Source: an uncultured Lentisphaeraceae bacterium (lineage in GTDB: Bacteria; Verrucomicrobiota; Kiritimatiellia; RFP12; UBA1067). From it: a stretch of DNA of 64,000 nucleotides. Every line of letters begins with the position of its first letter. The first letter of the stretch is position 1. Where the stretch lies: contig CAYLUN010000011.1 in the NCBI GenBank assembly GCA_964386865.1, forward strand, positions 12,058 to 76,057, written 5' to 3'. Position numbers and translations under genes: made by a program. Below are positions 167 to 30,594 of this stretch, piece by piece. The notes under the pieces were generated by a model. That model did no database searches. It was not told where the DNA came from and was given only the letters and a program-made list of their open reading frames with translations.

Positions 167-3022
167 ATGCGGAAGTGTGTGATTGGGGCGGTTGTCGGAT
201 TGCTTCAGGCGGGCGCCTTCGGCGCGCCGATCAGCACGGCGGTGACGAACAGCGCGGCGCCGATCGCGTTCGAGCGCGCGGGCGCGCTGGTGGGCGCGGC
301 GGTGTTCGGCCATCCCGGCACGTATGACGGGATCCCGTTCGCCGAGTGGCGCCCGTCGGGCCGGTCGCCGTTTGCTCTCGGCGACGGCGTGTACGTGGTC
401 ATGGACTCCAACGGGTACCCGGTGACCGACCTCGGCGGAGGCGGGCCGTATCAGACGGAGCTGTACGCGAGCGGGGACGGCGCGCAGACGCTGACCTTCA
501 CGGGCCTGGCGACCAACAAGACCTACGCCTTTCAGTTCGCGCACTTCGAGAAGCGCGCGGGCGACTGGTCCCGCTATGAAGGCGACCAAGTCTTCATGAC
601 CGCCGACAGCTGGTCAGCCAAGCAGCGGCTCGTGTTCGGGCCGGGCAAGACCGGCGAAGCGGCGTGCAACTACGCGCTGCTCACGGTCACCGTGACGGAC
701 ACGCCCAGCCTGTGCTACACGATGCCGAGGCCCGGCGCGCGCGGCCCGTCGATGAACGGGTTCAGCGTTCGCGTGGTCGGCGTGCAGCCGCCGTCCTCGG
801 CGGTGCCGCCGCGCGCGCTGCCCGCGCGTACGGCGAACCTGAAGCTGCCGGCCGACATCAGCGAGGTGCTGTTTGTCAAGCGCCTCACGTACTCGGCCAA
901 CCACTACTACACCGAGTATGTGAACAGCGCGTGGACGCCGGGCGGCAACCTGTGCCTGCTGGACGTGAAGAGCGGCGCGGTGCGCGAGCTGGTTCCGGCA
1001 ATGGCCTCGGGCGTGTTCGAGCGCTTCGACCTTTCGTTCGACGCCAAGCGCGTGGTGTTCGCCTGGAAGAAGGGGCCGCAGGACGGCTACCGGATCTACG
1101 AGGTCGGCGTGGACGGCAAGAACCTGCGGCAGCTCACGTTCCCGCCGCCGGAGGAGGCTGAGCTGGAGCGTCGGTATCGGGTCGACCCCAACTATCACCA
1201 CGGGACCGATGATTTGTCGCCCTGCTACGTGCCTGACGGCGGCATTGTCTTCATCTCCACGCGCTGCCAGTTCGGCATCCTGTGCGACGCGCCCGACAAT
1301 TTCACGACCACGGTGCTCTACCGCATGGACGGCGACGGCAAGAACCTGGTGAAACTGAGCAACAGTTCGGTCAGCGAGACCGGGCCGTCGATGCTGCCGG
1401 ACGGCCGCGTCCTGTACACGCGCTGGGAGTACGTGGACAAGGGGGCCGTCAGCGTGAAGGGGCTGTGGGCGATGCGGCCCGACGGGACGGCGTCGGTCGA
1501 GGTCTACGGCAACGACATCGCGCTGCCGCCGACGCTGAACTTCGGGCGGGCCATTCCGGGACTGTCGCAGGGCTACGTGGTGATGGGCGTGCCGCACTAT
1601 CCGCAGAGCAGCGTGGGCACCGTGATCCGGCTGGACCTCACCAAGCCGATCCGGTCGCGCGAGCCGATGACGTGGATGACGCCGTACGTGGACATCCGGA
1701 CTGAGGGCGGATTCCATTTCGAGGACGCGGCGGGCACGTGGGACAAGGACGCCAAGGGGGTCGGCCCGCTGTTCGCGGACGCGTATCCGCTTTCGGCCGC
1801 GCTCTTCCTCGTGGCGCACAAGCCGAAAGGGCCCGCGTGGAACGCCGCCGCCGGCTACGGCCTCTACCTGCTCGACGAGAGCGGCGCGGTGTGCGAGCTG
1901 TACCGCGACCCCGCGACCTCGTGCTGGCGGCCGGTGCCGCTGCGCGCGCGGCCGGTGCCGCCCGTGCCCTCGACGCCCGTGAACGCGGAGCTGGCGGCGC
2001 GCGGCGAGGCGGCGTGCATGGTGGCTGACGTGTACCACGGGCTCGAAGGCGTGCCGCCCGGCACGGTTAAGTACCTCCGCGTGCTGGAGCAGGTGCCGCG
2101 GCCGTGGGCGGCGCAGAACAAGGACAACAGCGACGAGTACGATCAGCAGCACATCGTGGTCTCCAAGGACACGCATCTGGGGCTCAAGGTCCAGCACGGG
2201 GTGGTGCCGGTCGAGGCCGACGGGTCGGCGCACTTCGTGGTTCCGGCCGACGCGAACATCGTCCTGCAGGCGCTCGATGAGAACGGGTTCGCGCTGCAGA
2301 CCGAGCGCACCTTCGTGAACTACCGGCCGGGCGAGGTGCGGGCGTGCATCGGCTGCCACGAGACGCCCGAGAGCGCGATGGCGCAGGGCGACAAGGTGCG
2401 CGAGAACCGGCTCGCGTTCCGGCGCGCGCCCTCGCGGCCCGGGCCGCAGGCGGGCGAGGCGCGGGGGCCGCGGCCGCTGCACTACGCGACGGACGTGCAG
2501 CCGCTCTTCGACCGGCGCTGCGTGTCGTGCCACGGCGGCGGAGAGAAGCTGGCGGGCGGGCTGGACTTGCGCGGCGCGCCGACGCAGAAGTTCTGCGTCT
2601 CGTACGAGTCGCTGGTGCCCGAGCGCCGCAAGGGCAAGGACAACCGCGACCGCGGCCTGCTGGGGCTGGTGATCGGCGAGAACCACCCCAAGACCGGCAA
2701 CGTCGACTACCTGCCGGCGGGCTCGCTCGGCGCGCGCACGAGCGTGCTGGGCGCGCTGCTGAGCCGGGGGCGGATCGCGCTGGCCGACCCGGCGCAGCGC
2801 GCGCGGGCGGAGCGGCTGGCCAAGGGCCACGCGCAGGTTTTGGCGAAGCTGACGGACGCCGAGACGCTGCCGGTGATGAATTGGATTGACACCAACTGCC
2901 AATATTACGGAAGCTATTGGGGAAGGCGGGACTTGCGCCATCAGGGCGCGCCGGATTTCAGGCGCGTGCCGACCTTCGAGGAGGCGCGGAGCCAGCGGCC
3001 GCCGGAATGGGCCGTTCGGTAG
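167..3022 (+). CDS. Secreted beta-propeller (TolB/PD40-like) protein with two C-terminal CxxCH heme-c motifs; hypothetical
   Basis: Long ORF 152..3022. ATG at 167 is preceded by GAGGGA, and MRKCVIGAVVGLLQAGAFGA reads as a signal peptide. Propeller-like repeats are present (WTPGGNLCLLDVKSG, DGKNLRQLT, DGDGKNLVKLS). Two CxxCH motifs occur (ACIGCHE, CVSCHGG), typical of planctomycete/verrucomicrobial cytochrome-like domain proteins. Confidence 0.6.
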   Translation: MRKCVIGAVVGLLQAGAFGAPISTAVTNSAAPIAFERAGALVGAAVFGHPGTYDGIPFAEWRPSGRSPFALGDGVYVVMDSNGYPVTDLGGGGPYQTELYASGDGAQTLTFTGLATNKTYAFQFAHFEKRAGDWSRYEGDQVFMTADSWSAKQRLVFGPGKTGEAACNYALLTVTVTDTPSLCYTMPRPGARGPSMNGFSVRVVGVQPPSSAVPPRALPARTANLKLPADISEVLFVKRLTYSANHYYTEYVNSAWTPGGNLCLLDVKSGAVRELVPAMASGVFERFDLSFDAKRVVFAWKKGPQDGYRIYEVGVDGKNLRQLTFPPPEEAELERRYRVDPNYHHGTDDLSPCYVPDGGIVFISTRCQFGILCDAPDNFTTTVLYRMDGDGKNLVKLSNSSVSETGPSMLPDGRVLYTRWEYVDKGAVSVKGLWAMRPDGTASVEVYGNDIALPPTLNFGRAIPGLSQGYVVMGVPHYPQSSVGTVIRLDLTKPIRSREPMTWMTPYVDIRTEGGFHFEDAAGTWDKDAKGVGPLFADAYPLSAALFLVAHKPKGPAWNAAAGYGLYLLDESGAVCELYRDPATSCWRPVPLRARPVPPVPSTPVNAELAARGEAACMVADVYHGLEGVPPGTVKYLRVLEQVPRPWAAQNKDNSDEYDQQHIVVSKDTHLGLKVQHGVVPVEADGSAHFVVPADANIVLQALDENGFALQTERTFVNYRPGEVRACIGCHETPESAMAQGDKVRENRLAFRRAPSRPGPQAGEARGPRPLHYATDVQPLFDRRCVSCHGGGEKLAGGLDLRGAPTQKFCVSYESLVPERRKGKDNRDRGLLGLVIGENHPKTGNVDYLPAGSLGARTSVLGALLSRGRIALADPAQRARAERLAKGHAQVLAKLTDAETLPVMNWIDTNCQYYGSYWGRRDLRHQGAPDFRRVPTFEEARSQRPPEWAVR

Positions 3023-3072
3023 GGACGTTGCCTCGTCGCGGGCGCGGACGGCAGGGGCTGCCGTCCCTACCG
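3017..3072 (+). terminator. GC-rich hairpin overlapping the stop codon of the upstream gene (putative intrinsic terminator, no T-run)
   Basis: CGGTAGGGACG (3017-3027) is the exact reverse complement of CGTCCCTACCG (3062-3072). An inner stem GACGGCAG/CTGCCGTC is also present. Confidence 0.3.
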
Positions 3073-3204
3073 GGCGGGGCTGGGGCGCTGCGGCTTCGGC
3101 TCGCGCTGGAGGGCCCGCCTCCGTGCGGGCCGCGGACGCGTCAGGCCGCCGGTTCTTGGAGCCGAGAAGACTGTGTGTAACGAACAAACAAAGGAAGAAC
3201 AGAG

Positions 3205-3960: not shown

Positions 3961-4089
3961 CAGCAATTCTAAATTTGACCCGCCGCGCGCTGTGAGAAGG
4001 CTCTCACGAGCCCACAAACGGAAACGCCTCGCTTTCGCACGTTTGTAGTGGCGCCGTGAGGCGCTTTCTAGTCAAATTCAGAATTGCTG
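3961..4089. repeat. Structured intergenic element: 19-bp inverted repeat (1 mismatch) enclosing three internal hairpins, between convergent genes
   Basis: CAGCAATTCTAAATTTGAC (3961-3979) pairs with GTCAAATTCAGAATTGCTG (4071-4089). Internal stems are GTGAGA/TCTCAC, ACAAACG/CGTTTGT and GCGCC/GGCGC. Confidence 0.45.
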
Positions 4090-4213: not shown

Positions 4214-7200
4214 TCAGCGAAGCAAGAGCAGCGTGCGGGGCGAGGGCGGCCACTGGGTGCGGAGGAAGCCGGCGCCGGTCAGGTAGGGCGAGAGGCGGCT
4301 CGCGCCGTAGACGCCCTCCAGCTTCTGGTTGCCGTTGACCGTGAGCGTGTGGACGGTCTGCGTGCCGACGTAGGCGAGGTCGACGGAGGCTCCGCTTAGG
4401 ATCGACACGTTTGCGGCGGGCGGCAGGACGGCGGGGCCGGCGAGGCGCAGGACGCCGTTGCTGGCGACCGTCGTGCCGGTGTAGGCGTTCGTGCCGGCCA
4501 AGACGAGTGTGCCGACGCCGGTCTTGACGAGCGAGGCGCCGTTGTTAAACTGGCCCAGGTTCATCAGCGTGCCGGCGCGCGCGTTGAGGACGTCGATGCG
4601 CTGTGTGGCCGTGCCGATCACGTGGCCGGTCATGTCCAGCGTTCCGCCGTTGAGGTTGATCGTGCTGAGGCTGTTGCTGCCGAGGTCGCGTATGTCGGCG
4701 TTGCAGGCGAAGGTGCCTCCGTTGACATTGAGAGTGCCGGTAGCGGAGCCGCCCCCGCTTTGGGAGGCGAGCGAGAAGGAACCGCCGGAGAGCACCGTGA
4801 AGACGCCGCCGCTGACCGTCAGCGTAGCCGTGGCCGCACCGGTGCGGATGCCGCTCTTGGCCGCCATGAGGAGGTTGCTCGCGGTGAACGTGCCGCCGTC
4901 GAAGGAGAGGTTGCCGGTGGCTCCGCCGTTGTAGTTTGTCACCGACGTGTTGTTGTCTTCCTTGCCGAGGATCAGCGTTCCTGCAACGACCGTGGCGAGA
5001 TGACCCCGCAAGTCGAGCGTGCCGACCGGCGTGGCGGAGGTGCCGGTGGCGGTCTTGGCGCCGAGCGTGAGATCGGCGGCGGGCCTGGTGCGGCCAATGA
5101 GCGTCAGCGTGCCCGGCGAGCCGGCGGCCTGCGAGGCGAACTTGAGGGTGCCGCTCGACTTGGAGAGGCCGATGTTGACGGTGTTGGCGGCGATCACGTT
5201 CGCGCCCGCGCCGAGGACGACCGTGCTCGTGCCGCCATTGCTGCCGCTGGAGTGGCCGATCTGCACGGCGGTGGACGCGACGGCGTTGCTGGTGTCGGAG
5301 AGCGTGAGCTGGCCCGACGTCGTCTGCCCGAAGCCGACGCGCAGCTCGCTGAGCGGCGCGTCGGGGGTGCCGAACGACACGCAGGCGAGCCCCGCGAGGT
5401 CGAGCCAGCAGGCGTTGTAGTAGTTCTGCGTGGACTGGGCCTTGCCGACTGTGACCAGCGCGGCGGCGTTCGTCACGAGCAGGCTGCCGCCGCCGAAGAT
5501 GCGGCAGCGCGTGGTGCTGTTGGTGCCGGAGTCGGTGCCGACGGTGAGCCCGCCAAGGCCGGTGAGCGCAAGCGTCTGGCCGGGCGCGACGGAGACGAGG
5601 TTGGTGAGGGCCGCGTTGGTGCTGGCGACCAGGACGGTGGCGAGGGTCTGGCTGAAGGCGCCGAGCGCGAGGGCGCCCGCGCCGGCGGTGGTGCCGAGGG
5701 TCACGGCGCCGGACACGGGGAGGGCGTCGGTCGCGCCGAGCAGCAGCGTTCCGCCGCTGACGGTCGTCGCGCCGCTGTAGGTGCTCGCGCCGGAAAGGGT
5801 CAACGTGCCGCGCGTCTGCGCCAGCGCGAGGCGGCCGCCGTTCGGTCCGTCGGCGAGCGCGCCGCTGATCGTGCAGCCTGCGGCCGAGGCGGCGGTGCCC
5901 TGCGCGAGCGTCTGGGTGGCGCCGGTGCCGGCGGTGCCGGCGATGGGGCCGGTGAAGGTCGCGCCCGCCGCGTCGCCGGCGAGGGTGGTGTCGGCCAGCA
6001 GCGTGAGCGGGGCCGAAAGGGTGGCGGAGGCTGTGGCGAGGCGCAGGGCGCCGCGGCCTTCGGCGTTGCCGGAGCCCCGGACGGAGACGCCCGCGAAGCT
6101 GGCCGCCGCGTTGGAGAGCATGAGCGTGGTGCCAGCGTCGATCTGCACCGTCGCGGCGGGCGCGAGGACGCCGCCCGCGTCCCACTTGTCGCCGGTGGCG
6201 CCCGCGCCCGCGAGCTGGACAATGCCGGCGAAGCCAGTTGCGCCGGGCAGCGCGGTGGCGCGGGCCGTGGCGCCGGAGGAGAAGTTCAGGCGGAGCGTGC
6301 CGGTGCCGGAGAAAGCGTTTGTCTTTGCGACGAGGCCGGCGACGGTGCTGACGTTGTCCAACTGCAGGGTTGCGCCGGGGCCGATCGCGACGGGGCCGGT
6401 GCCGAGGCCGCTCTGGCTGGCGGAAAGGGTGGCGTAGGTGGTGCCGGCGCCGCTGGCGAGGGCGAGGCCGCCGCCGTAGGTGTTCGCGCCGGTGAGGCTG
6501 AGCGAGGCGGCGCCGGATTTGGCGAGCCCGCCGCCGCCCTGTAGCGGGCCGCTGAGGAGGAAGGCGGCCGAGCCGTCGCCCTCCACGGAAACGGTCGTGA
6601 CGAGCGTGGCGGCATTGGCGAGCGTGTAGGTGAGCCCGTCCGGGCCGGCTTCGGCGTCGAGCCTGAGCGCGGGCGCGACGGAGCCGTTGCCGAACGCGAG
6701 CGGCTGCCCGACGAGCGCGACGGCGGCCGCGCCGCTCGCGGGGCCTGTGCCCGCGAGGCGCAGGATCGCGAGCTGGAAGGTGCCTGCGTTGTTATTGGTG
6801 GCGGTGAGGGTGCCGGGCTCAAGGGCCTGGCCGGGCAAGAACTCCACGGCGCCATTGGTGTGCGAGAAGGCGGGCGTGCCGGCGAGCCAGCTTGCGCCTT
6901 GCGTCCACGGGAGCGCGGCGCCGGCGGCGGTGTTCGTCCAGACGCTTGAGGCGACGACGGAGAGGACGAACGAGTCGCTGGCGGTGTCGATGCCGTCGCT
7001 GACGGTGAGCGTGACGGTGGCGGTGCCGGTCTGGTTCGAGGCGGGTGTGAGCGTGACGGTGCGTTCCGCGCCGCTGCCGCCGAAGAGGATGCGGTTGGTG
7101 GGCATGAGCGTGGCGTTGGATGACGCGGCCGAGAGGGTCAGCGCGGCGGCGTCTGTCTCGGCGTCGCCGACGGTGAAGGGGATTGGCCCCGTGGAGGTGT

Positions 7201-10200
7201 TGGCCGCGACGGTTAGGTTTGTGACGTCGCTGAGCACGGGCAGCGACGCGAGCGCGAGCACGACGTCGTTGCCGGTGCCGCCTGCGTAGGTGATGCGCCA
7301 CCGGTAGCCGTCTTCGACAAAGGCGCTGTTGTTCGGCTTGTTCGTGAAGGTGCCGCTGACAGCGCCCGCGCCCGTGCTGTTGATGAGGGTGAAGGCGCTG
7401 GCGGAGGGAAGGCCCGTGCCGGCCTGGAGGTCGAGCGCGCCCGCGAGGGTGACGGCGCCTGCCACGGCGAGCGTGTCGTACTGCGTGCCCGCCGCGGGGC
7501 CGTCGATGCGGACGGAGAGCCGTCCGCCCGCGTGGACCGCGAGGCTGCCCGCGATGCTCGGTGCGCCAGAAGGCGCGAGGGTGCCTGTCGCGACGGTGAG
7601 GTTGCCCGCCAGGTTGCTGAGGAGCGCGAGGGTGCCGTTGCTGACGGTGGTCGCGCCGCTGTAGGTGTTGGTGCCGGCGAGCGCGAGCAGGCCTGCGCCG
7701 ACCTTGGTGAGGGCGTACGAGCCGGAGACCGGCGCGCCGATCTGGATGTCGCCGCTGCCGCCGACCACGGTGTTCGCGCCGAGGGCCATGCTGGAGAGGT
7801 GCGCCGTGGCAAGCGTGCCCGCGCCGCTGCCGAACGAGACGGAGGGGGCTGCTGTGTAGCCGGAGCCGGAGGAGGTGAGCTGGAGGCCGCTGACGGTGAA
7901 GTTCGTGGCGTTGCCGACGCCGCTCGGGGCGACGCCAGGGGTGAGGATTGTCCCGCCGGAGAAGGCGAGGGCGGGGGCGCTCGAGTAGCCGGTGCCTGCG
8001 CTGGTGATCGTGATGCCGCTGAGCACGCCGTTGGTGAGCGTGGCGGTGACGGCTGCGCCGCTGCCGCCGCCACCGCTGAGGGAGACGCTGGGGGCAGCCG
8101 AGTAGACGGTCGTGCCGGGCGAGAGGGTAAAGCTGGCGGCGGTGAGGCCGAGCGTGGCGACGGCGGACGCGCCCGAGCCGGGGCCGCTGAACGAGACGGA
8201 AGGCGCCGCGCTGTGCGTGCCGCCGGAGGTGACCGTCACAACCGAGACCGCGCCGCCGGCAAGGCTGGCGGGCTCTGCGGCCGTGTTCACCAAGGCGCCC
8301 GCGCCGCCGACGCCGCTGCCGCGCACGGTCAGGATCTCGGTGACGTCCGCCTGGCCGCCGAGGTCCAGCGTCGAGCCGGAGGCGAGCGTACAGGCGCCGT
8401 TGTTGTTGCCGTACACGAGGCCGCCGCGTCCGAGCGCAAAGGGGTGGCCGAGGGCGAGCGTGCCGGCGTTGAGCGAGGTCGCGCCGGAATACGTGTTGGA
8501 GCCTGCCAGCAGCCAGCGCCCCGCGTCGCTCTTCGAGGCCGAGAGCAAGTTGACGCCGCCGTTGGTGATCGCGCCAAAGATGGCGCCGTTGCCTGTGCCG
8601 GCGAGCTGCAGCGTGCGGCTCGTGGTGTTGGGCCCGAGCGTGCCGGTCAGGGTAAGCGTGCCCGCAGAGGACGTGATCTTCGTGTCGCCGCCGCCGCCGG
8701 TGAGGGTGATGTCGCCGCGCAGCGTGTTGTCGCCGGCCTCGTTGATGATCGCGCCGTCGGCGTGGCTGGTTCTGTACGTGATCGCGGCGGGCAGGTCGAT
8801 GGGCGTGGACGAGCCGTCAAGGCGCAGCTGCGGCGCGCCGGCGGTGCCGTTGTAGAGGCTGATCTGCTTTTCGCCGTCGCCGAGCGCGGCGCTCCCGGTG
8901 ATGCGCAGCGCGCCGGAGTTGACGGTCACACCGCCGGTGAACGTGTTGGTGCCGCTCAGCACGACGGTGCCGCCGTTCTTCGGGCAGTCGACGTAGAGGC
9001 TGCCCGCGCCGCTGATGGCGTTGGGCACCGCGAGCGTGCCGGTGCGGTCAAAGCGGAGCTGGCCGTCGTTTTCCACCGGCCCCGCGCCGAGCGTGCCGGT
9101 GGCGCCGTCAGCACCGATCTGAAGGGTGCCCTCTTGGATGACCGTGTCGCCGGAGTAGGTGTTGGTGCCGGACAGCGTGAGCGTCTTGTTGCCCGCCTTG
9201 ACGAGTCCACCGGGGCCGGAGACCGGCCCGCCGATGCGGAAGGTCGCGGTGCCGGCGCCGTCGACGGTCGTGTCGGCGCTGAGCGTAACGGGCATGGCCA
9301 GCAGGTAGGTCAGGCCGGAGCCGGCAGTGGCGTCCAGGCTCAGGCTGGGCGCGGTCAGCCCGTTGTTCTGGAAGGCCAGCGGGCCGCCCGTGAGCGTGAC
9401 GGTCGCAGCGGAGCTGGCCGTGCCGGCGAGCGAGAGCGCGTTCAGCGTGAAGTCGCCGGCGCTGTCGTTGCGCGAGGTGACCGCGCCGCCGGCCAGGGTC
9501 TTGGCGGTGAAGAACTGCAGCGTCGCGCCGCGGCTGGCGGTGGGGGTCGCGTTGCCGGACCAGCTTGAGGCCGTGCTCCACGGCAGGGTGGCGCCGGCCG
9601 CCGCGTTCGTCCACACGTAGGTGCTGGGCGCGCTGGCGAGCGTGATCGTGCCGGTTGCGGTGAGCCCGCCGAGGTGGCGGGCGGTGAGTCCGCTGGCCAG
9701 CGCGGCGATCTCGGTCGCGGTCAGTGCGGCCTTGTGGACGGCGAGATCGTCGAGCCGGCCGTCGAGCCAGCGCGGGGCGTAGGCCGCGTTCGTATCCGTG
9801 TGGCCGCCGAAGATGAGCGGGTACGTCTGGTTGAGCGACAGCGAGTAGGAGGCGTCTTCGCCGGCCAGCGCCCCGTTGAGGTAGAGCCTCATCGTCGTGC
9901 CGCTGCGGACCACGGCGACATGGTGCCATACGCCGGGCGCGGCGTTGGTGACGATGTTCACGTCAGGGCCGGGGAAGTGCTGGAGCGAGAGGGATGACGC
10001 GCCGTCCGCCACGAGATAGAGCTCCTCGTTCGTGCCGTAGCCATCGCCGTTGTTGAGGTGCCAAACCATGTCCTCGTTCGCGCTGTCGCGGCGTTTGAAC
10101 CAGCCGGAAATCGTCCAGTTTCCGGTACTGAAATTGAGTTCGTTGGAGGCCACGACACGGCTGAGCCGGGCCGCGTTGGCGCCACCGTTCTCGGCGAGGT

Positions 10201-13200
10201 CGAGGCTGCGCCCGTCGCGGGCGAAGGCCGCGGGGGTGTCGGCCTGGAGCGTCGCGGCGCCGGTGCCGACCGCGTCGAGCGTGCCGTCGCGGCCGAGGCC
10301 CGACGCGTCGGCGACCGCGTTGGTGGCTGTGGCGTCGGGCGGCTCGAAGTCGTACACGAGCAGCGTGCGCGTGTCGGGGCCGGCGTCGGTGGCGGCGAAG
10401 CTGAAGAGCGGCACCCCGGTGAAGCCGGGGGTGGGGGTGAAGCGGGCGGTGTGGCCGTCGGCCAGCAGGGCCACGGTGCCGTTGACGGCGCCTGAGACGG
10501 TGAAGCGCAGGTGTTCGGGCGGGGTGGCGTCGTCGGTGGCATAGCCGCGCAGATCGACGTCCACGTAGCCTGCGAGGTCGCCGAAGGCGTTGCCGTCCGC
10601 GGCGACGGGCGCGTCGTTGGCGGCCGCGAGGTTCCAGGCGCTCAGGGCGGTCAGAGCCGGCGGCGCGGCCGGGGCCGACTCTCCGCTGGCCAGCGGCACG
10701 AACCAGACGGCGAGCGTGGTGTTCGTCACGCCGGCCAGCTTGATCGCGAGCTTCTTGAAGCCCGTATTGGCGTTCTGGTTGGTCGGGTTCGGCGACGTAG
10801 CCAGCGGCACGGCGTTCGTGATCAGGAAGGTGCCGCCGCCGCTGAGGATCTTGCACCAGAGGCGGTCCGAGCCCTGGGTCATCATCGCCGAGGTGCCCCC
10901 GGGCTCGATCTCCACGGTGGTCGCGGGATAGGCGTAGTGCGCGAACCACCAGACGGTCTTGCCCGTGGACGCCTGGATCTCGTCCTGGAGCAGCATTTCG
11001 TTGCGTGCGCCGAGCAGGCGGGTGCCGCGCCAGACGCGCGTCATGCCGCTGTAGACGGGCGTGAGGTCGTGGATCGCGAAGCTGCCGGAGCCGCCGGGCT
11101 CGCTCGCGTAGGCGACGAGCGGCGCGACGGCGTTAAGCACCATGTCGGCGTTCGCGCTGGGATTGATGGTCAGCGTGTTTTGACCCTCGGGGCGCATGCG
11201 GTAATAGTCCCAGCGGTCGATGCCTGTGCTCGGCGTGTCGCTGAAGTAGCCGGGGAGCGCGTAGTTATCGCCGCCGAGGTCGTGGAACCAGCGCTTGCCG
11301 AGCGCGTCGAGCACGAAAGTTCCGGCGTCGAGGTTGCCGTGCGACGCGCCCATCTCGCCGCCCTTGCAGCCGATGAATGTCGTGCGGCTGCCGCTCCACG
11401 TGCCGCGCAGCGTGACCATCTCCTGCGGCTGGAAGGCGGTGCCCGACTCGCCGTGGAAAGCCATATCGGGCTGCGTGTCGAGGTCGGTGAGCGAGGCGGC
11501 CTGGCCGTCCCACCAGAGCGCGTCCAGCGCGCCGCCGCTGCCTTGGTTCTCCCACCACGCGTAGAGCGGCTGGCCATAACGCCGGGCGAACCACTGGTAG
11601 ACGGGGCCGCGCGAGGCGCCGCCCGCGCTGGCGTCGGCATAGTTGAAGATCTTGCCCGAGGGGCCGAGTGCGAAGATGGGGGCGAGGCCCGTCTCGGAGA
11701 GGTCGACGGTGGCGCCGATGCCGAAGTCGCTGCCCAGCGCCCACTCGAGCGCGGCCAGCATGCGGATGCCGTACTCGGTGGTGTAGCCCCAGTAGCCCGG
11801 GCCCTCGTACCACGCGCCGTTGTCGGTGGTGAAGTGCTTCCAGACGGGCCGCGTGGAGTTGATGGCGCGGTTGAGGATGTTCTCGACGAGGGACTCGCTC
11901 TCGGTGCCCAGCGCGAGCGCGCCCATGGAGAGGCCGCCGTTGCAGACCATGTTCCAGTTGTTGCCCGAGCTTTGCGACCAGCCGACGTTGGCGGTGTACT
12001 GGGATAGCCCCGCGTTGAGGCCGTTGGTGATGATCGCGCCGCGGATTACGGCGCGGCGGTCGGCGGTCCAGTAGTGGTAAAACCAGTCGTAGCCGATGGC
12101 GCAGGCGTGGGTCATCTCGGCCGTGTCGAGGAAGTGCGCGGGGTGCCAGTCCGGGAAGGCGGCGACCGCGCTCAGCTCCTCCCACGCGCGCTCGGCGTAC
12201 TGGCTGTCGCCGGTGAGCTGCCAGGCGACGCCGAGCTTGTATAGGCGGTCTTTCGCGGTGCGCGACTGGTCGAGGATGGTGTCCCGCACATCCTGCGTGT
12301 AGGTGACGGGGTCTTGCGTGAGGATCGTGTTCGCGCCGCTGATGGCGCTCTGCGCCCAGGTCTTGGGCTGGCTGGCGGCGGCGCTCTGCCAGGAGTCGCG
12401 GAGGCGCGCGAAGCGCTCGGTGGTGGCAAAGAGGCGGGGGTGCCCTTGCGCCAGGGTGTTCAGCAGCGCGGCCTCAGACGGCTGCGCGTTGGTCAGCCCC
12501 GGCTGCACGAGCGCGCTGCCGGGCACGACGCTGAACGCGGCGTCGCCGGGCTTCATCCAGCCCACGCTCCAGTGGTCGGAGCCGGTGCTCTCTTTGTGCA
12601 GCAGCTCCACGTAGTAGCGCTGGCCCTGCGTCAGCGTCCGCGGCGCGGACTGCTGCGAGGGTTGGGCGTCCCACACGCGGAAGCTGGTGGCGTTGGTCAC
12701 GCTGGCGATGAGAGCCTTGTTGTTCGTGGTCGAATCGGCGCTCAGGTAGAGCTGAGCGACGTCGTCGCCGCTGACGGCAAAGGTGTAGCTGCCCGACTCA
12801 GGCGGCACGATGTAGCCGGTGACGCGCGTGCCGTAGGCGTTGGTCCAGCTCTGCGCCAGGCACTCGAAGGTGGTGATGAACTCGCGGCCGCTAGGCTTGC
12901 TCGGGTAGTTCGCGTTGGCGGTGAGCGAGGTGATGGCGCCACCGGAGATCCCGGCCCAGTGCTCCTTGAGGAGCGCGCCGCCGGCCTTCTCGACGCGGGC
13001 GGAGAAGAGCCGCTCCGCTGGGATCACCTCGCGGGCGCGTGAGGCGCAGGACCACTCGAGTTTGGCTCTGGCGCTGCCGGACTGCTCCACGAGCTCGAGC
13101 CGAATGTTGACGCGCTGGCCGGCGTGGAGCGCGACCTGCCCGCGGAACTCCTGCGACGTGTAGAAGGTGCGCAGCGCGACGAGCTGGTCGTTCACCCAGA

Positions 13201-13534
13201 GGCGCGCGCTGTCGTCGGCCGCGACGATGAAGGTGTAGAGCTCGGAGAACGCCGGCTCGATCTGGCCAGACCACACAACGGAGAAGGTGTCGCCGCTGGT
13301 CAGGGCGGTGCCGGAGGGGATGGACGTGCCCCAGTCGAAGTTCACGGTTGCGTCGACGCGCGTGGTCTTCAGCGTTCCGAAGGTCGCGGTGTCGTAGTAC
13401 TGCCCAGTCAGGCCGCTCGCGGCGTGAAGGCGCGGCGCGGCAAGCAGGCACGCAGCAGCAAGCAGGAGTCGCGTGCAGCATACGAGCGCCGCGCACGTGG
13501 GGCGCGTCACAAATCGGTCGGATAACACTCTCAT
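4214..13534 (-). CDS. Giant (about 3100 aa) secreted surface/adhesin-like protein: 2x PA14, heparinase II/III-like domain, cadherin-like, LamG, long array of autotransporter-associated beta-strand (PATR) repeats
   Basis: ORF track 4214..13918. The signal peptide begins at internal Met (MRVLSDRF...LLAAPRLHAASG), which corresponds to the ATG at 13534. PA14 motifs are present (GLTGQYYDTATF..., SGSYTFAVSGDD). A heparinase II/III-like region is present (HACAIGYDWFYHYW, NNWNMVCNGG). LamG is present (NWTISGWFKR...VWHHVAVV...LYLNGA). Dozens of repeats follow of the form TLSGTNTYSGxT...GTL.L. Confidence 0.85.
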   Translation of the reverse strand: MRVLSDRFVTRPTCAALVCCTRLLLAAACLLAAPRLHAASGLTGQYYDTATFGTLKTTRVDATVNFDWGTSIPSGTALTSGDTFSVVWSGQIEPAFSELYTFIVAADDSARLWVNDQLVALRTFYTSQEFRGQVALHAGQRVNIRLELVEQSGSARAKLEWSCASRAREVIPAERLFSARVEKAGGALLKEHWAGISGGAITSLTANANYPSKPSGREFITTFECLAQSWTNAYGTRVTGYIVPPESGSYTFAVSGDDVAQLYLSADSTTNNKALIASVTNATSFRVWDAQPSQQSAPRTLTQGQRYYVELLHKESTGSDHWSVGWMKPGDAAFSVVPGSALVQPGLTNAQPSEAALLNTLAQGHPRLFATTERFARLRDSWQSAAASQPKTWAQSAISGANTILTQDPVTYTQDVRDTILDQSRTAKDRLYKLGVAWQLTGDSQYAERAWEELSAVAAFPDWHPAHFLDTAEMTHACAIGYDWFYHYWTADRRAVIRGAIITNGLNAGLSQYTANVGWSQSSGNNWNMVCNGGLSMGALALGTESESLVENILNRAINSTRPVWKHFTTDNGAWYEGPGYWGYTTEYGIRMLAALEWALGSDFGIGATVDLSETGLAPIFALGPSGKIFNYADASAGGASRGPVYQWFARRYGQPLYAWWENQGSGGALDALWWDGQAASLTDLDTQPDMAFHGESGTAFQPQEMVTLRGTWSGSRTTFIGCKGGEMGASHGNLDAGTFVLDALGKRWFHDLGGDNYALPGYFSDTPSTGIDRWDYYRMRPEGQNTLTINPSANADMVLNAVAPLVAYASEPGGSGSFAIHDLTPVYSGMTRVWRGTRLLGARNEMLLQDEIQASTGKTVWWFAHYAYPATTVEIEPGGTSAMMTQGSDRLWCKILSGGGTFLITNAVPLATSPNPTNQNANTGFKKLAIKLAGVTNTTLAVWFVPLASGESAPAAPPALTALSAWNLAAANDAPVAADGNAFGDLAGYVDVDLRGYATDDATPPEHLRFTVSGAVNGTVALLADGHTARFTPTPGFTGVPLFSFAATDAGPDTRTLLVYDFEPPDATATNAVADASGLGRDGTLDAVGTGAATLQADTPAAFARDGRSLDLAENGGANAARLSRVVASNELNFSTGNWTISGWFKRRDSANEDMVWHLNNGDGYGTNEELYLVADGASSLSLQHFPGPDVNIVTNAAPGVWHHVAVVRSGTTMRLYLNGALAGEDASYSLSLNQTYPLIFGGHTDTNAAYAPRWLDGRLDDLAVHKAALTATEIAALASGLTARHLGGLTATGTITLASAPSTYVWTNAAAGATLPWSTASSWSGNATPTASRGATLQFFTAKTLAGGAVTSRNDSAGDFTLNALSLAGTASSAATVTLTGGPLAFQNNGLTAPSLSLDATAGSGLTYLLAMPVTLSADTTVDGAGTATFRIGGPVSGPGGLVKAGNKTLTLSGTNTYSGDTVIQEGTLQIGADGATGTLGAGPVENDGQLRFDRTGTLAVPNAISGAGSLYVDCPKNGGTVVLSGTNTFTGGVTVNSGALRITGSAALGDGEKQISLYNGTAGAPQLRLDGSSTPIDLPAAITYRTSHADGAIINEAGDNTLRGDITLTGGGGDTKITSSAGTLTLTGTLGPNTTSRTLQLAGTGNGAIFGAITNGGVNLLSASKSDAGRWLLAGSNTYSGATSLNAGTLALGHPFALGRGGLVYGNNNGACTLASGSTLDLGGQADVTEILTVRGSGVGGAGALVNTAAEPASLAGGAVSVVTVTSGGTHSAAPSVSFSGPGSGASAVATLGLTAASFTLSPGTTVYSAAPSVSLSGGGGSGAAVTATLTNGVLSGITITSAGTGYSSAPALAFSGGTILTPGVAPSGVGNATNFTVSGLQLTSSGSGYTAAPSVSFGSGAGTLATAHLSSMALGANTVVGGSGDIQIGAPVSGSYALTKVGAGLLALAGTNTYSGATTVSNGTLALLSNLAGNLTVATGTLAPSGAPSIAGSLAVHAGGRLSVRIDGPAAGTQYDTLAVAGAVTLAGALDLQAGTGLPSASAFTLINSTGAGAVSGTFTNKPNNSAFVEDGYRWRITYAGGTGNDVVLALASLPVLSDVTNLTVAANTSTGPIPFTVGDAETDAAALTLSAASSNATLMPTNRILFGGSGAERTVTLTPASNQTGTATVTLTVSDGIDTASDSFVLSVVASSVWTNTAAGAALPWTQGASWLAGTPAFSHTNGAVEFLPGQALEPGTLTATNNNAGTFQLAILRLAGTGPASGAAAVALVGQPLAFGNGSVAPALRLDAEAGPDGLTYTLANAATLVTTVSVEGDGSAAFLLSGPLQGGGGLAKSGAASLSLTGANTYGGGLALASGAGTTYATLSASQSGLGTGPVAIGPGATLQLDNVSTVAGLVAKTNAFSGTGTLRLNFSSGATARATALPGATGFAGIVQLAGAGATGDKWDAGGVLAPAATVQIDAGTTLMLSNAAASFAGVSVRGSGNAEGRGALRLATASATLSAPLTLLADTTLAGDAAGATFTGPIAGTAGTGATQTLAQGTAASAAGCTISGALADGPNGGRLALAQTRGTLTLSGASTYSGATTVSGGTLLLGATDALPVSGAVTLGTTAGAGALALGAFSQTLATVLVASTNAALTNLVSVAPGQTLALTGLGGLTVGTDSGTNSTTRCRIFGGGSLLVTNAAALVTVGKAQSTQNYYNACWLDLAGLACVSFGTPDAPLSELRVGFGQTTSGQLTLSDTSNAVASTAVQIGHSSGSNGGTSTVVLGAGANVIAANTVNIGLSKSSGTLKFASQAAGSPGTLTLIGRTRPAADLTLGAKTATGTSATPVGTLDLRGHLATVVAGTLILGKEDNNTSVTNYNGGATGNLSFDGGTFTASNLLMAAKSGIRTGAATATLTVSGGVFTVLSGGSFSLASQSGGGSATGTLNVNGGTFACNADIRDLGSNSLSTINLNGGTLDMTGHVIGTATQRIDVLNARAGTLMNLGQFNNGASLVKTGVGTLVLAGTNAYTGTTVASNGVLRLAGPAVLPPAANVSILSGASVDLAYVGTQTVHTLTVNGNQKLEGVYGASRLSPYLTGAGFLRTQWPPSPRTLLLLR

Positions 13535-13898
13535 ATTTTGCAATCCTGTCGCAGGCCCTAAGCAGCAGCACACCCCGTCAACGCATACGTTACACCACGC
13601 GCGCGCGCGGCGTCCAGCGAAACAGCGATTCTCACCAGGGCCTAAATGCCAGAGACGGACTGAAGGCAGGCCTCCCCGCGTTTCATTCCGTGCTCGTAGT
13701 CCGGGCTTCGGCCCGCTTCTTCCGGAATCGGGCTGGCCAGAATGAGAATGGCGGCCCGCGAAGCCCTCGCGGCTCCAGCAGGTCGGCGCCACGAAACGCG
13801 GTGCGCCCGGGTGTTTCCTGCGTGTTTCCGTTGACGTTAGGCGTGCGGAGAGATAAACTATTATCACCTGACAAGATTCTATTGGAAAGGAACGCAAG

Positions 13899-14432
13899 AT
13901 GAAAAACCTGTTCTTCATAGCTGCCTGTATCGTCGGCGGTCTTCTGTCCGGCTGTGTGGTGTCCGATCCGTGGGCTCCGCAGTATACGAGTCCCGTTGTG
14001 GTGGATCCGACTCCGACTTATGTCACGCCGGCACCGCGCGCGCCGAAACCGATTGTGGTGGATCCGGTGCCGTTCATCGTTCCGCCGGTTGATCTCCGCC
14101 CGGGAAGGCCTGCCGATCCGATTCGTATTACGCCAAACCCGCACGGAACACCCCACTTTAACCCCGGCCGGGGCCAGCATGGGATTCCCCAGCATCAACC
14201 GTCGCCTCAGCTCCAGCATCAGCCCTCGCACCAGCCTGGGCATCAGCCCTCGCATCAGCCCTCGCATCAGCCTGGCCAGCAGCTCCAGAAGCAGCCTGGG
14301 CAGCAGATCCAGAAGCAGCCTGGGCAGCAGATCCAGAAGCAGCCTGGGCAGCAGCAACAGCAGCAGCAGCCTGGGCAGCAGCAAAAGCCTAAGCAGGAGC
14401 AGCAACTTCAGACGCAGCCGAAGCACCCCTGA
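13899..14432 (+). CDS. Pro/Gln-rich tandem-repeat lipoprotein, hypothetical
   Basis: RBS GGAAAGGA precedes the ATG. Lipobox LLSGC is present. The C-terminal half is made of HQPS/HQPG and QKQPGQQI peptide repeats, encoded by near-perfect nucleotide tandem repeats at about 14190-14400. Confidence 0.7.
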   Translation: MKNLFFIAACIVGGLLSGCVVSDPWAPQYTSPVVVDPTPTYVTPAPRAPKPIVVDPVPFIVPPVDLRPGRPADPIRITPNPHGTPHFNPGRGQHGIPQHQPSPQLQHQPSHQPGHQPSHQPSHQPGQQLQKQPGQQIQKQPGQQIQKQPGQQQQQQQPGQQQKPKQEQQLQTQPKHP

Positions 14433-14631
14433 TTCGTGCGAGGAGGGGGCGGTGGGCTGAAGCGCAGAGCCGCGACTGCATGCAGGCTCGTGACGAAACG
14501 CGCGTCGTCGTGCCGTCCGGTCATGCCGGCGGCGCGACGAGTTCGTTTGCGAGCGGGGGGCTGGGCGGCCGTGAAGAAGCGCGTTCTGAGGAATGTGAGC
14601 CAGTGACACTAAACCGTTGAATGGGGGGGAT

Positions 14632-16179
14632 ATGAAACAGTCCGCGTCTGCATCCGTCGTGTGTGCCCTGCTTCTCTGTTCAGCCGCTGTCCGTGCGGAC
14701 GTCATGCTTCCGCCGGCCATTTCCGACCACATGGTGATCCAGAGCGGGGCTGCCGCGCCGATCTGGGGCAAGGCTTCGCCGGGCGAGGCGGTAACGGTCT
14801 GCATCGCCGGACAGACGAAGACGGCGACCGCCGACGCGCAGGGCCAGTGGAAGGTGACGCTCGACCCGCTGAAAGTCGCCGAGGGGCTCACGCTCACCGT
14901 GAAGGGCAAGAACGCGATTGAGGTTCAGGACGTGCTGGTCGGCGAGGTGTGGCTGGGCTCCGGCCAGTCGAACATGGACATGCACGTCAACAGCTACACC
15001 AACAACGACCCCGTTCTGGCTCAGGCGGCCGCGACGAGCTATCCGAAGCTACGCCTGCTCCACAAGGGCCGCAAGGGGTGGGAAGAGGCTACGCCCGCTA
15101 ACAACGCCCAGTTCTCGGCGCTGCTCTTCGCGTTCGGGTTCCGCCTCCAGCAGGAGCTGGGCGTGCCGGTCGGCATCATGGTCGGCGCGGTGGGCGGCAC
15201 GCCGTCAGGCTACTGGCTGACGGAGGAGATGTACCGCGGCGACGCGGCCTGCCGCGCGCAGGCGGAGGAGTTCGCGAAGACGTATGATTTTGCCGCGGCT
15301 CAGAAGAAGTACGAGGAGCAGCTCGCCGCGTGGAAGGTGGAGGCGGGGAAGGCGAAGCAGGAGAAGGTCAAGGTGCCTCGGCAGCCCGCCGCTCCGGCGA
15401 AGGCGGGCGAGTCCTCCGGCCGCATCGGCAACCTCTACGAGGCCCACGTGCGACCCTACGCGCCCTACGCGATCCGCGGCGTGCTGTGGGACCAGGGCGA
15501 GAGCGGCACGGCCATCACGGGCGTGGACCAGTTCAACGTCATGGGCGCACTGATCAAGGGGTGGCGCAAGGAGTGGGGCCAGGAGTTTCCCTTCCTCTAT
15601 GTGCAGAAGACCAGCGGCGGCGGCGCGGCGTGGGATCCGGCAGACCCGGTGACGAAGAACGCGAGCACGTTCAGCCCGCTGCCCGCTCAGGTGCCCGGAG
15701 CGGGCGACGGCCTCTACCGCGAACTGCACATCAAGATCCAGCAGCATCCGAAGACCGCGATGGTCACAAGCACCGACCTCGGCAGCGGCGTGCACCCCAT
15801 CAGCAAGTCGGGGTACGGCGCGCGCGCCGTGCGCGTGGCGCTGGGCTTCGTCTACGGCAAGCCGGTCGAGATCAGCGGCCCGGCCTACGCGTCGCACGCG
15901 GTGGAGGGAAACAAGGTGCGCGTCAAGTTCGCGCATGTCGGCCAAGGCCTCGCGGCCCGCCACAGCGACAAGCTGCAGGGCTTCATGGTCGCGGGCGCGG
16001 ACAAGAAGTTCGTGTGGGCCGACGCGGCGATCGACGGCGACAGCGTGGTCGTGTCGAGCGCGGCGGTGCCGAGCCCGGTGGCGGTGCGCTACGCGTGGTC
16101 CGGCAACGCGCCGTGGGCGAACCTGTTCAACAAAGACGGCCTGCCCGCGCTCACCTTCCGCACCGACGACTGGAGGTGA
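14632..16179 (+). CDS. Sialate O-acetylesterase (SASA/DUF303 carbohydrate esterase family)
   Basis: Signal peptide present. The GDS-type motif VWLGSGQSNM is characteristic of SASA-family esterases. The ATG at 14632 follows a GGGGGGA RBS; the track start at 14617 is TTG. Confidence 0.8.
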   Translation: MKQSASASVVCALLLCSAAVRADVMLPPAISDHMVIQSGAAAPIWGKASPGEAVTVCIAGQTKTATADAQGQWKVTLDPLKVAEGLTLTVKGKNAIEVQDVLVGEVWLGSGQSNMDMHVNSYTNNDPVLAQAAATSYPKLRLLHKGRKGWEEATPANNAQFSALLFAFGFRLQQELGVPVGIMVGAVGGTPSGYWLTEEMYRGDAACRAQAEEFAKTYDFAAAQKKYEEQLAAWKVEAGKAKQEKVKVPRQPAAPAKAGESSGRIGNLYEAHVRPYAPYAIRGVLWDQGESGTAITGVDQFNVMGALIKGWRKEWGQEFPFLYVQKTSGGGAAWDPADPVTKNASTFSPLPAQVPGAGDGLYRELHIKIQQHPKTAMVTSTDLGSGVHPISKSGYGARAVRVALGFVYGKPVEISGPAYASHAVEGNKVRVKFAHVGQGLAARHSDKLQGFMVAGADKKFVWADAAIDGDSVVVSSAAVPSPVAVRYAWSGNAPWANLFNKDGLPALTFRTDDWR

Positions 16180-24913: not shown

Positions 24914-24961
24914 GGGCGCGGCAGTCGGGGTCACGGTATGGGCGGTATGGGCGTTTCGGCC

Positions 24962-24987
24962 TTCTCACACCTCCGGAGGTGTGAGAA
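24962..24987. promoter_or_regulatory. Perfect 26-bp palindrome TTCTCACACCTCCGGAGGTGTGAGAA (copy 2), about 128 bp upstream of the 25115 start
   Basis: Identical to copy 1 at 19154-19179. It lies in the non-coding leader, which the track mis-annotates as an N-terminal extension of ORF 24938. Confidence 0.5.
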
Positions 24988-25114
24988 CGTGTTGGCGAGC
25001 GCCGGGCAGCGGCAGGATAGGCTCGTCACGCAGCCGGTTCAGGAGCGCCGGGCGAGGGCTGCGGGGTCAAGCCGCCTGAGCGGGCCGGCGGAGTGTGTTC
25101 GAAAGGGGGCTCTG

Positions 25115-30400: not shown

Positions 30401-30594
30401 GCGTGCGCTCCTTTGCCAAGCTACGATCACTTCCGCTTTAAACAGCATTACGTTCGCACACTCTCCGTTCCCGGTCAAGATGGATAAACGACCACAGGTT
30501 TGGTTTTGCGAACGAGCAGGGCAAACGGCTATACTATGAGGTTGACTATGGCGTGCCGCGTGCGGAGACGCGTGCCGCGAGGGCGGTGACACGG

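Follow-up and report, generated by a model that had tools for sequence, protein, structure and literature searches.

Polysaccharide lyase family 35 (PL35) was founded on VvPL35 of Victivallis vadensis, a bacterium of the Planctomycetes-Verrucomicrobia-Chlamydiae (PVC) group, and its biochemistry and structures, which date from 2024-2025, describe small single-module enzymes of 624-648 aa that act on animal glycosaminoglycans (GAGs) and come mostly from GAG utilisation loci of Bacteroidota. Every characterised member is a lyase, and GAGase II of Spirosoma fluviale (PDB 8KHV), GAGase VII of Bacteroides intestinalis (8KHW) and the chondroitinase BcPL35 of Bacteroides caccae (9O3Q) all combine a DUF4962 toroid with a Hepar_II_III_C sandwich. 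In GAGase II the catalytic residues are Tyr246, His401 and Asn192, each of whose alanine mutants is inactive, and Mn2+ is bound by His403, Asp405, Asp421 and His457, whose alanine mutants cripple the enzyme (PMC12088678, eLife 2025). This Mn2+ site is a trait of the two GAGase crystal structures and lies outside the CAZy definition of PL35. Here we describe a gene on the minus strand of a 64,000-nucleotide stretch of contig CAYLUN010000011.1 from an uncultured Lentisphaeraceae bacterium (hereafter the window), which encodes a 3106-aa mosaic protein carrying the same two domains as a module at aa ~351-947. With fair confidence we regard its product as a Sec-exported modular PL35-type lyase of ~308 kDa from a Verrucomicrobiota-like (PVC) bacterium, in which an N-terminal head would cleave polysaccharide and a stalk of PATR motifs would tether it.

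The family assignment draws on sequence and on a structural model. In a phmmer search of the PDB the best match was 8KHV (E 2.7e-69, residues 31-627 of the searched segment against chain residues 2-587, so covering the whole module), followed over nearly the whole module by 8KHW (2.2e-66) and 9O3Q (1.5e-59), while the next-best matches were PL33 'heparinase' entries at 5.8e-5 or worse. Chains of PL12, PL21 and PL15 gave no match at E<=10 in this search, and the sole PL17 match (8BDD, E 0.38) was marginal. An AlphaFold2 model of the segment at window positions 10655-12574 (aa 321-960), built with 51 homologues, reached a pLDDT of 90 and a pTM of 0.87 and was helical at segment residues 34-365 and beta at 371-628. 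Foldseek placed the three PL35 crystal structures at the top (E ~1e-37; template-modelling (TM) score 0.76-0.78 normalised to the query and 0.84-0.86 normalised to the target; root-mean-square deviation 3.8-4.0 Å), ahead of PL15, exo-heparinase, dermatan-sulfate epimerase, PL33, PL17, PL21 and PL12. Heparinase II (PL21), heparinase III (PL12) and the PL15/PL17 alginate lyases share the superfold and the Tyr/His beta-elimination chemistry with the PL35 module, but they superimpose on the query less closely (query-normalised TM 0.54-0.72, deviation 5-10 Å), and heparinase II/III proper was rejected as an identity for the module, PL12 and PL21 ranking 24th or lower with TM scores of 0.54-0.59. 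Of the features examined for membership of PL35, full-length similarity, the two-domain fold and the catalytic Tyr, His and Asn were found in the sequence and its model, by which the module is closest by far to PL35 rather than to a generic heparinase II/III. A first-pass annotation made from the letters of the window alone had named a heparinase II/III-like domain; the polysaccharide-lyase superfold in that proposal stands, but the family is better given as PL35.

To place the active site, the chain index of 8KHV was taken as the published numbering minus 22, an offset that holds for His136, for the mature start after Ala23 and for every motif. The catalytic residues of GAGase II then correspond to N526 (nt 11957-11959), Y581 (11792-11794) and H732 (11339-11341), which are invariant in all 51 aligned homologues; His136, Arg87, Arg94, Asp405 and Asp421 of the PL35 enzymes are retained as well. 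The surrounding motifs NNWN, EGPGYWGY, xHG[ND]LDAGTF and EGQNTL are near-invariant among the giant orthologues despite overall identities of 45-70%. The first-pass annotation had allowed for a domain without the catalytic Tyr and His that would only bind; these residues were looked for and proved present and invariant, and the module is therefore predicted to be catalytic, a binding-only role being unlikely. The metal-site equivalents are N734, D736, D752 and Q785, so that both Asp are kept, and across the family the pair at the two His positions is HH in 16, NH in 13, NQ in 11, HQ in 5 and DQ in 3 sequences, which suggests a plastic site, perhaps adapted to a harder metal, rather than a dead one. 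Position 525 is Asn, equivalent to Asn191 of GAGase II, as in that GAG-only enzyme, whereas GAGase III needs His at this position to act on alginate (PMC12088678).

Profile searches with Pfam and NCBIfam gave the domain order of Table 1. They agree with the first-pass annotation, which had described a protein of about 3100 aa with the order PA14-PA14-lyase-cadherin-LamG-PATR, a catalytic-type lyase domain between lectin-like PA14 and LamG modules, and a long beta-strand region behind it: the gene is a single open reading frame (ORF) on the minus strand, a strand that the annotation had left unstated, each of these domains was matched, and PF12951 and TIGR02601 mark the region after the lyase. 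DUF4962 and Hepar_II_III_C matches span aa ~351-907 (31.2 and 29.0 bits in Pfam, both above their cut-offs). The second Ig-like domain, placed between the two PATR blocks, is less certain (PF17963 E 1.9e-4, 22.7 bits, just under the cut-off of 23.6; PF17892 E 7e-4). The PA14 and LamG domains that flank the lyase are lectin-type modules for which sugar binding is predicted.

Table 1. Features of the giant PL35-type gene and its immediate neighbours (window positions).
Feature	Position	Strand	Evidence or remark
Whole gene, 3106 codons + stop	4214..13534	-	ORF list; GC at third codon positions (GC3) 0.92; full-length collinear orthologues L001/L037
Sec signal peptide, aa 1-38	13421..13534	-	Basic n-region, LLLAAACLLAA core, putative cleavage after LHA; equivalent peptide in all orthologues
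PA14 domain 1, aa 39-174	13013..13420	-	PF07691 E 2.6e-19, 69.9 bits (cut-off 24)
PA14/GLEYA domain 2, aa ~235-329	12548..12832	-	PF07691 E 1.2e-10, 41.8 bits (cut-off 24); PF10528 E 8e-9
PL35-type lyase module, aa ~351-947	10694..12484	-	DUF4962 (alpha/alpha)6 toroid + Hepar_II_III_C beta-sandwich
Big_9 Ig-like ('cadherin-like') spacer, aa 973-1057	10364..10618	-	PF17963 E 1.4e-6, 29.5 bits
Laminin_G_3/concanavalin-A-like lectin domain (LamG), aa 1128-1277	9704..10153	-	PF13385 E 1.2e-23, 84.3 bits (cut-off 27.6)
PATR block A, aa ~1286-2110	7205..9679	-	PF12951 + TIGR02601; four motifs near aa 1438, 1510, 1660, 1936
Second Ig-like domain (Big_9/Cadherin_5-like), aa ~2106-2186	6977..7219	-	Weak
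PATR block B, aa ~2191-3093	4256..6964	-	PATR matches; three motifs near aa 2331, 2564, 2996
12-residue C-terminal tail WPPSPRTLLLLR, aa 3095-3106	4217..4252	-	Kept in eight relatives
HZS-alpha-domain protein, 956 aa	152-3022	+	HZS_alpha E 2e-23; downstream of giant gene
Convergent lipoprotein-type cupin (LAGGC signal), 233 aa	3205-3906	+	D-lyxose/D-mannose isomerase-like, PDB 2Y0O E 1.4e-15
SASA-family esterase	14617-16179	divergent	Neighbour of giant gene

The open frame runs uninterrupted from 4214 to 13918, and the Met at 13534, internal to this longer frame (MRVLSDRF...LLLAAACLLAAPRLHA, then AS), is favoured as the start because every orthologue has a Sec-type signal peptide that abuts the conserved GLTGQYYDT. 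From this Met the protein begins MRVLSDRFVTRPTCAALVCCTRLLLAAACLLAAPRLHA, followed after the putative cleavage point by ASGLTGQYYDT; the cut was placed by reading the sequence. Over 20 orthologues have such a peptide, short and immediately followed by this mature N-terminus, and the 128 in-frame codons upstream of 13534 begin in AT-rich, non-coding-looking sequence. GC3 is uniform along the gene, and its high value against a second-position GC of 0.59 therefore indicates a real gene in a genome of ~70% GC. By composition the mature protein has a mass of ~308 kDa and a pI of ~5.2.

The architecture is widespread. A genome scan with one genome per species yielded 77 loci. More than 25 species-level Verrucomicrobiota genomes, labelled Verrucomicrobiaceae, Chthoniobacteraceae, Prosthecobacter, Luteolibacter and Brevifollis, share the N-terminal 1300 aa (PA14-PA14-PL35-Big_9-LamG) at 65-79% identity, and further genomes, including that of the cultured Chthoniobacter flavus Ellin428 (L028), do so at 44-60%. 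Heads of the PA14-PA14-lyase type are found too in metagenome-assembled genomes (MAGs) labelled Planctomycetota. The record titles give groundwater, lakes, ponds, soil and sludge as the sources of the relatives. Public assemblies held no exact copy of the protein or of the GH92 protein encoded in the window, and the Verrucomicrobiota-like affiliation is drawn from the relatives. Among the nearest of these are L001, from a Verrucomicrobia MAG and 79% identical over the N-terminal 1300 aa (66.5% at full length), and P0001, a Chthoniobacteraceae fragment. Most orthologues are shorter, at 1990-2430 aa; the second Ig-like domain, block B and the tail are found in the query, L001 and L037. The short PA14-PA14-PL35-Big_9-LamG-PATR orthologues of Verrucomicrobiaceae and Chthoniobacteraceae (~2000-2400 aa) are collinear with the query to aa ~1800-2190 at 44-68% identity and share its active-site motifs, but after block A they carry a module of ~110 aa where the query has the second Ig-like domain, block B and the short tail. 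From the N-terminal conservation in more than 25 genomes, together with the collinearity of L037, the whole architecture is judged to be under selection.

The labels of the relatives are uneven. The closest (77-79% identity) are called variously Verrucomicrobia, Kiritimatiellia (L002) or Lentisphaeraceae (L019, L037), homologues occur also in MAGs labelled 'Akkermansia muciniphila' (L026), 'Bifidobacteriaceae' (L045) and 'Kuenenia' (L046), and several of the names seem to result from faulty binning or classification. A search of representative proteins returned 2803 clusters at 50% identity with E<=1e-30; among the best 150 of these representatives many are 1400-3300 aa long with the module at aa ~305-950, and a few carry it at ~1600-2500. 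In three proteins it lies far from the N-terminus (aa 1858-2505 of 3316 in P0139, aa 1587-2172 of 3123 in P0151 as two matched stretches, and aa 1818-2471 of 2656 in P0159), and the PL35-like module has therefore been shuffled into several giant architectures.

Behind the head, seven PATR motifs are spaced irregularly over ~1800 aa. An alignment of block A with block B shows 30% identity in 808 columns (E 5e-65), and the two are therefore attributed to an old internal duplication, block B being present only in the long-form orthologues. For the last 330 aa AlphaFold2 gives an all-beta solenoid (pLDDT 83.5) that ends with the strand LTGAGFLRT (aa 3085-3093), the last 13 residues forming low-confidence coil. 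The first-pass annotation had spoken of a repeat array whose internal nucleotide repeats would make the gene a hotspot of recombination and length variation, and had raised the worry that the array arose by assembly collapse. None of this was borne out: the motifs are dispersed and form no contiguous array, Tandem Repeats Finder reported no tandem array longer than 57 nt in the gene, the best dispersed DNA repeat family is 56 nt at 60-80% identity, and exact repeats in the 9.3-kb gene reach at most 18 nt, a length within the 15-19 nt of 20 codon-shuffled controls. L001 and L037 are collinear with the query, L037 at 70% identity with 3 gap positions in 3072 columns and L001 with a few unit-sized indels confined to block A, and modules are gained and lost only on long evolutionary timescales. 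Within block A, aa ~1770-1930 (nt ~7745-8227) hold 4-5 Gly/Ser-rich repeats of ~40 aa ('..GYSSAPSVSFSGGGGSGA.ATA.L..') that match no Pfam model; the metagenome protein P0129 has a similar copy, and L001 is short by about one unit.

The protein ends exactly in WPPSPRTLLLLR before the stop codon. As the first-pass annotation had noted, this region holds no recognisable PEP-CTERM signal, Por-type sorting domain of the type IX secretion system (T9SS) or autotransporter barrel. A classical autotransporter (type Va) was rejected since no barrel model was matched and the last 330 aa are a solenoid ending in coil; autotransporter passengers such as antigen 43, fusolisin and ShdA share the PATR/TIGR02601 motif and a predicted beta-solenoid with the query, but the latter has no C-terminal barrel, its head is built of enzyme and lectin modules, and its fold similarity to antigen 43, TibA and fusolisin is not significant (E > 2). 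A T9SS cargo was dismissed on the lack of a match to the ~80-aa C-terminal sorting domain model, and a PEP-CTERM protein on a tail (PPSPRTLLLLR) that lacks PEP, has 4-5 hydrophobic residues and a single Arg, and matches nothing in NCBIfam. Nor is the end a frameshifted or truncated PEP-CTERM, since none of the frames of the 150 nt past the stop encodes a hydrophobic helix and the stop is kept in eight relatives.

The tail defines a family with the pattern P-x(3)-T-hydrophobic(4)-[RQ]-COOH and the variants WPPSPRTLLLLR, WPPSAATVIMLR, WPPSARTLLMVQ, WPPSSRTVFLLQ, LPQQATVILLR, MPSLGTLLLMQ, LPLSGTLLQVR and LPYTGTLLRLR. Tail and stop stand at the same position in the query, L001, L037 and the metagenome fragments P0121-P0125; the fragments also have the C-terminal portion of block B. 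The end is therefore not a truncation. A packed capping strand was rejected for the tail, since in the model aa 3094-3106 are coil and pLDDT drops under 50 at the five final residues. In 1.36 Mb of related DNA, a small sample with 694 ORFs, the tail is on no other protein, which leaves a general sorting signal unsupported. In more distant relatives with a PEP-CTERM (P0130, P0132) that signal occupies the position of the tail, after the last G-x-G-x-L strand, and others have there a domain of ~80 aa ending in FYRLVYP; true PEP-CTERM ends also occur on other proteins in related genomes. The tail resembles the first ~10 residues of a PEP-CTERM (P-x-x-G/R-T-L-L-L against PEPGTVVSLL in P0130) but lacks the PEP tripeptide, the membrane helix of ~20 residues and the Arg cluster. 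It may be a vestige, a minimal signal or a recognition peptide.

The ~110-aa module that ends the short orthologues (L003, L005, L011, L024, L028) reads QW[RQ]..FG...D.DGDG.SNLLEYA..NP...RRF[VM][RH]L[RK]VTRP up to the stop and has no Pfam match; it may be a domain for sorting or anchoring that is specific to the phylum. A 1852-aa LamG/cadherin protein elsewhere in the window (30553-36111; C-terminus ~35700-36108) ends similarly, in RRFYQLKVRLQ, and 29 ORFs of more than 600 aa in the 77 loci and the window end in a FxRLxV-like motif. A bolder proposal, which we think rather improbable, is that such C-termini are interchangeable cassettes of an undescribed barrel-less surface-display pathway, with the 12-residue tail on long forms and the ~110-aa module on short forms and the 1852-aa neighbour; PL35 and lectin domains would be the cargo on a PATR stalk, and the tail, descended from PEP-CTERM, a minimal signal for sorting or processing.

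Under the reading that we favour, the protein would be exported by Sec and would then cross the outer membrane by a route without a recognised barrel or sorting domain. The lectin modules of the head (aa 39-1290: two PA14 domains, the PL35 lyase, the Ig-like spacer and LamG) would hold a uronic-acid-containing polysaccharide while beta-elimination by the PL35 module cuts it, with the carboxylate neutralised by N526 together with N525 and with H732 and Y581 in the roles of base and acid, following the mechanism put forward for GAGase II. The two duplicated PATR blocks would form a rigid beta-solenoid stalk of ~1800 residues to project the head from the cell or keep it tethered outside. Display at the cell surface, as the first-pass annotation also proposed, is what we infer from this arrangement.

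Several results weigh against this reading. Identity to the characterised PL35 enzymes is only 27-29%, and catalysis is a prediction throughout the clade. Two of the four Mn2+ ligands are changed (His403 and His457 to Asn734 and Gln785) and the substrate-binding Arg88 is Thr in the query, changes that may alter metal use and specificity or reduce the activity. Models of barrels and of PEP-CTERM and T9SS C-termini gave no match at E<=10 on the last 60, 200 or 806 aa, and the barrel models of Pfam and NCBIfam none over the whole protein. Foldseek of the C-terminal solenoid against the PDB returned nothing significant (best E 0.04), the weak matches all being beta-helices. The gene is not surrounded by a cluster like a polysaccharide utilisation locus that would point to a substrate, and the neighbourhoods are not conserved across orthologue genomes.

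The substituted metal ligands and Arg88, together with the adhesin-like look of the PA14, LamG, Ig-like and PATR solenoid parts, would also fit an adhesin whose lyase-like domain, no longer catalytic, acts as an additional lectin module of a surface fibre. We think this quite unlikely, as the Asn, Tyr and His remain invariant in every aligned homologue, the active-site motifs are near-unchanged across orthologues only 45-70% identical, and the spread of N/Q variants of the metal site beside H/H suggests plasticity and not decay. The enzymes of this superfold include epimerases, which have the first catalytic step in common with the lyases, and a uronate C5-epimerase, or another enzyme using the same proton abstraction to remodel the cell's own exopolysaccharide, would be compatible with the resemblance to human dermatan-sulfate epimerase 1 (6HZN; Foldseek rank 9, E 7e-22, TM 0.69). 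The similarity to PL35 is far stronger (E 1e-69, target-normalised TM up to 0.86 against 0.60) in a family whose characterised members are all lyases, and an epimerase seems very improbable. That the giant ORF or its repeat region is collapsed or chimeric is hardly credible: beyond the a-priori worry that repeat-rich genes misassemble we found nothing in its favour, nucleotide repetition does not exceed chance, GC3 is uniform, and the independent assemblies L001 and L037 are collinear, of the same length and with the same C-terminus.

A released extracellular enzyme deserves more weight than these, although we hold it to be unlikely. Here the PATR region would be a spacer, a matrix-binding region or a solubility scaffold and the tail the structural end of the solenoid; the protein has no anchor domain of known type, its tail with 4-5 hydrophobic residues is too short for a membrane helix, and its restriction to this one protein in the sampled ORFs is unlike a general sorting signal. 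The tail is, however, modelled as unpacked coil rather than a capping strand, its sequence and exact stop are conserved where the flanking residues vary, and the short orthologues carry another conserved C-terminal module in its place, which suggests a specific C-terminal role.

The substrate of the tethered PL35-type lyase that we favour may be a GAG, one possibility among others given the groundwater, lake, pond, soil and sludge origins of the relatives. The proposal of a GAG-binding or -degrading protein in the first-pass annotation thus holds in part: a catalytic lyase is predicted from the invariant residues, but GAG is no longer its only possible target. SASA or GDSL/SGNH/CE2_N esterases lie within 1-3 genes of the PL35 giant gene in L005, L017 and L078, which are otherwise non-syntenic (loci 16666-18351 in L005 and L017, 5208-9578 in L005 and 1168-2373 in L078), and UxaE, a tagaturonate epimerase of hexuronate catabolism, is encoded immediately upstream of the orthologue in Chthoniobacter flavus. 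These neighbours are weak hints of an acetylated uronic-acid substrate.

We found no paper describing giant forms of PL35 or PATR proteins in Verrucomicrobia, and a literature search for PL35 in Verrucomicrobia turned up catalogue mentions only. The enzyme family is known, and what is uncharacterised is the giant architecture with its lectin modules, PATR stalk, altered metal site and unusual conserved tail; the design is common in such bacteria and is unsurprising in kind to a specialist in carbohydrate-active enzymes. In Verrucomicrobiota of freshwater, groundwater, soil and sludge the PL35-type module, its catalytic residues intact, typically sits within giant lectin-decorated proteins of 2000-3300 residues. 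If active, these giants are likely to be major extracellular tools against acidic polysaccharides in such habitats, with algal, cyanobacterial or bacterial exopolymers, possibly acetylated, as candidate substrates, and they would widen the substrate and metal-site range of PL35. Abundant proteins without a known anchor also mark a gap in the knowledge of export and surface attachment in the phylum. The findings bear on research into carbohydrate-active enzymes and on carbon cycling in freshwater and soil.

Among the neighbouring genes, the HZS-alpha protein, named for its hydrazine-synthase-alpha middle domain, has an 81% identical neighbour in L001 (19006-21270, minus strand) and two 30%-identical paralogues upstream in L037. 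The convergent cupin falls below the Pfam threshold for Lyx_isomer; an 80% identical protein occupies the same convergent position beside the tail-bearing fragment L078 (439-1143, minus strand) and is absent in L001 and L037. An exported cupin resembling a sugar isomerase is unusual. Beyond the SASA esterase follow a metallophosphoesterase, a PFL activase and PFL. Further along the window are two secreted mosaics on the plus strand, one of 1271 aa (24938-28753) with DUF6055, two Laminin_G_3 and a PA14/GLEYA domain, and the 1852-aa protein mentioned above, with two Laminin_G_3 and Cadherin_5/Big_9 domains; the window also encodes GH92, DUF2961 and GH43/32-like proteins and a C1 peptidase, and the genome is rich in extracellular glycan-directed proteins.

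Upstream of the giant gene a gap of ~1.08 kb (13535-14616, GC ~0.64), without an Rfam match, separates it from the esterase gene and may be a large regulatory region; a weak 177-aa ORF (13899-14432, GC3 0.70) overlaps there the upstream frame extension that reaches the ATG at 13918. On the other side, the 307-nt gap between the stop and the convergent cupin gene holds a 19-nt AT-rich inverted repeat (arms 3961-3979 and 4071-4089, 95% complementary, 91-nt spacer), of which no further copy was found in the window (0 expected by chance) or in the 77 genome-scan loci. Rfam searches of the whole window, with a permissive search of the 3' region, gave no match. The fold computed for the 151-nt region around the repeat is a long stem that encloses two hairpins (-69 kcal/mol, z = -5.9), a stability matched by 0 of 200 shuffles, and the repeat (3961-4089) may be a bidirectional terminator or a small element of unknown kind.

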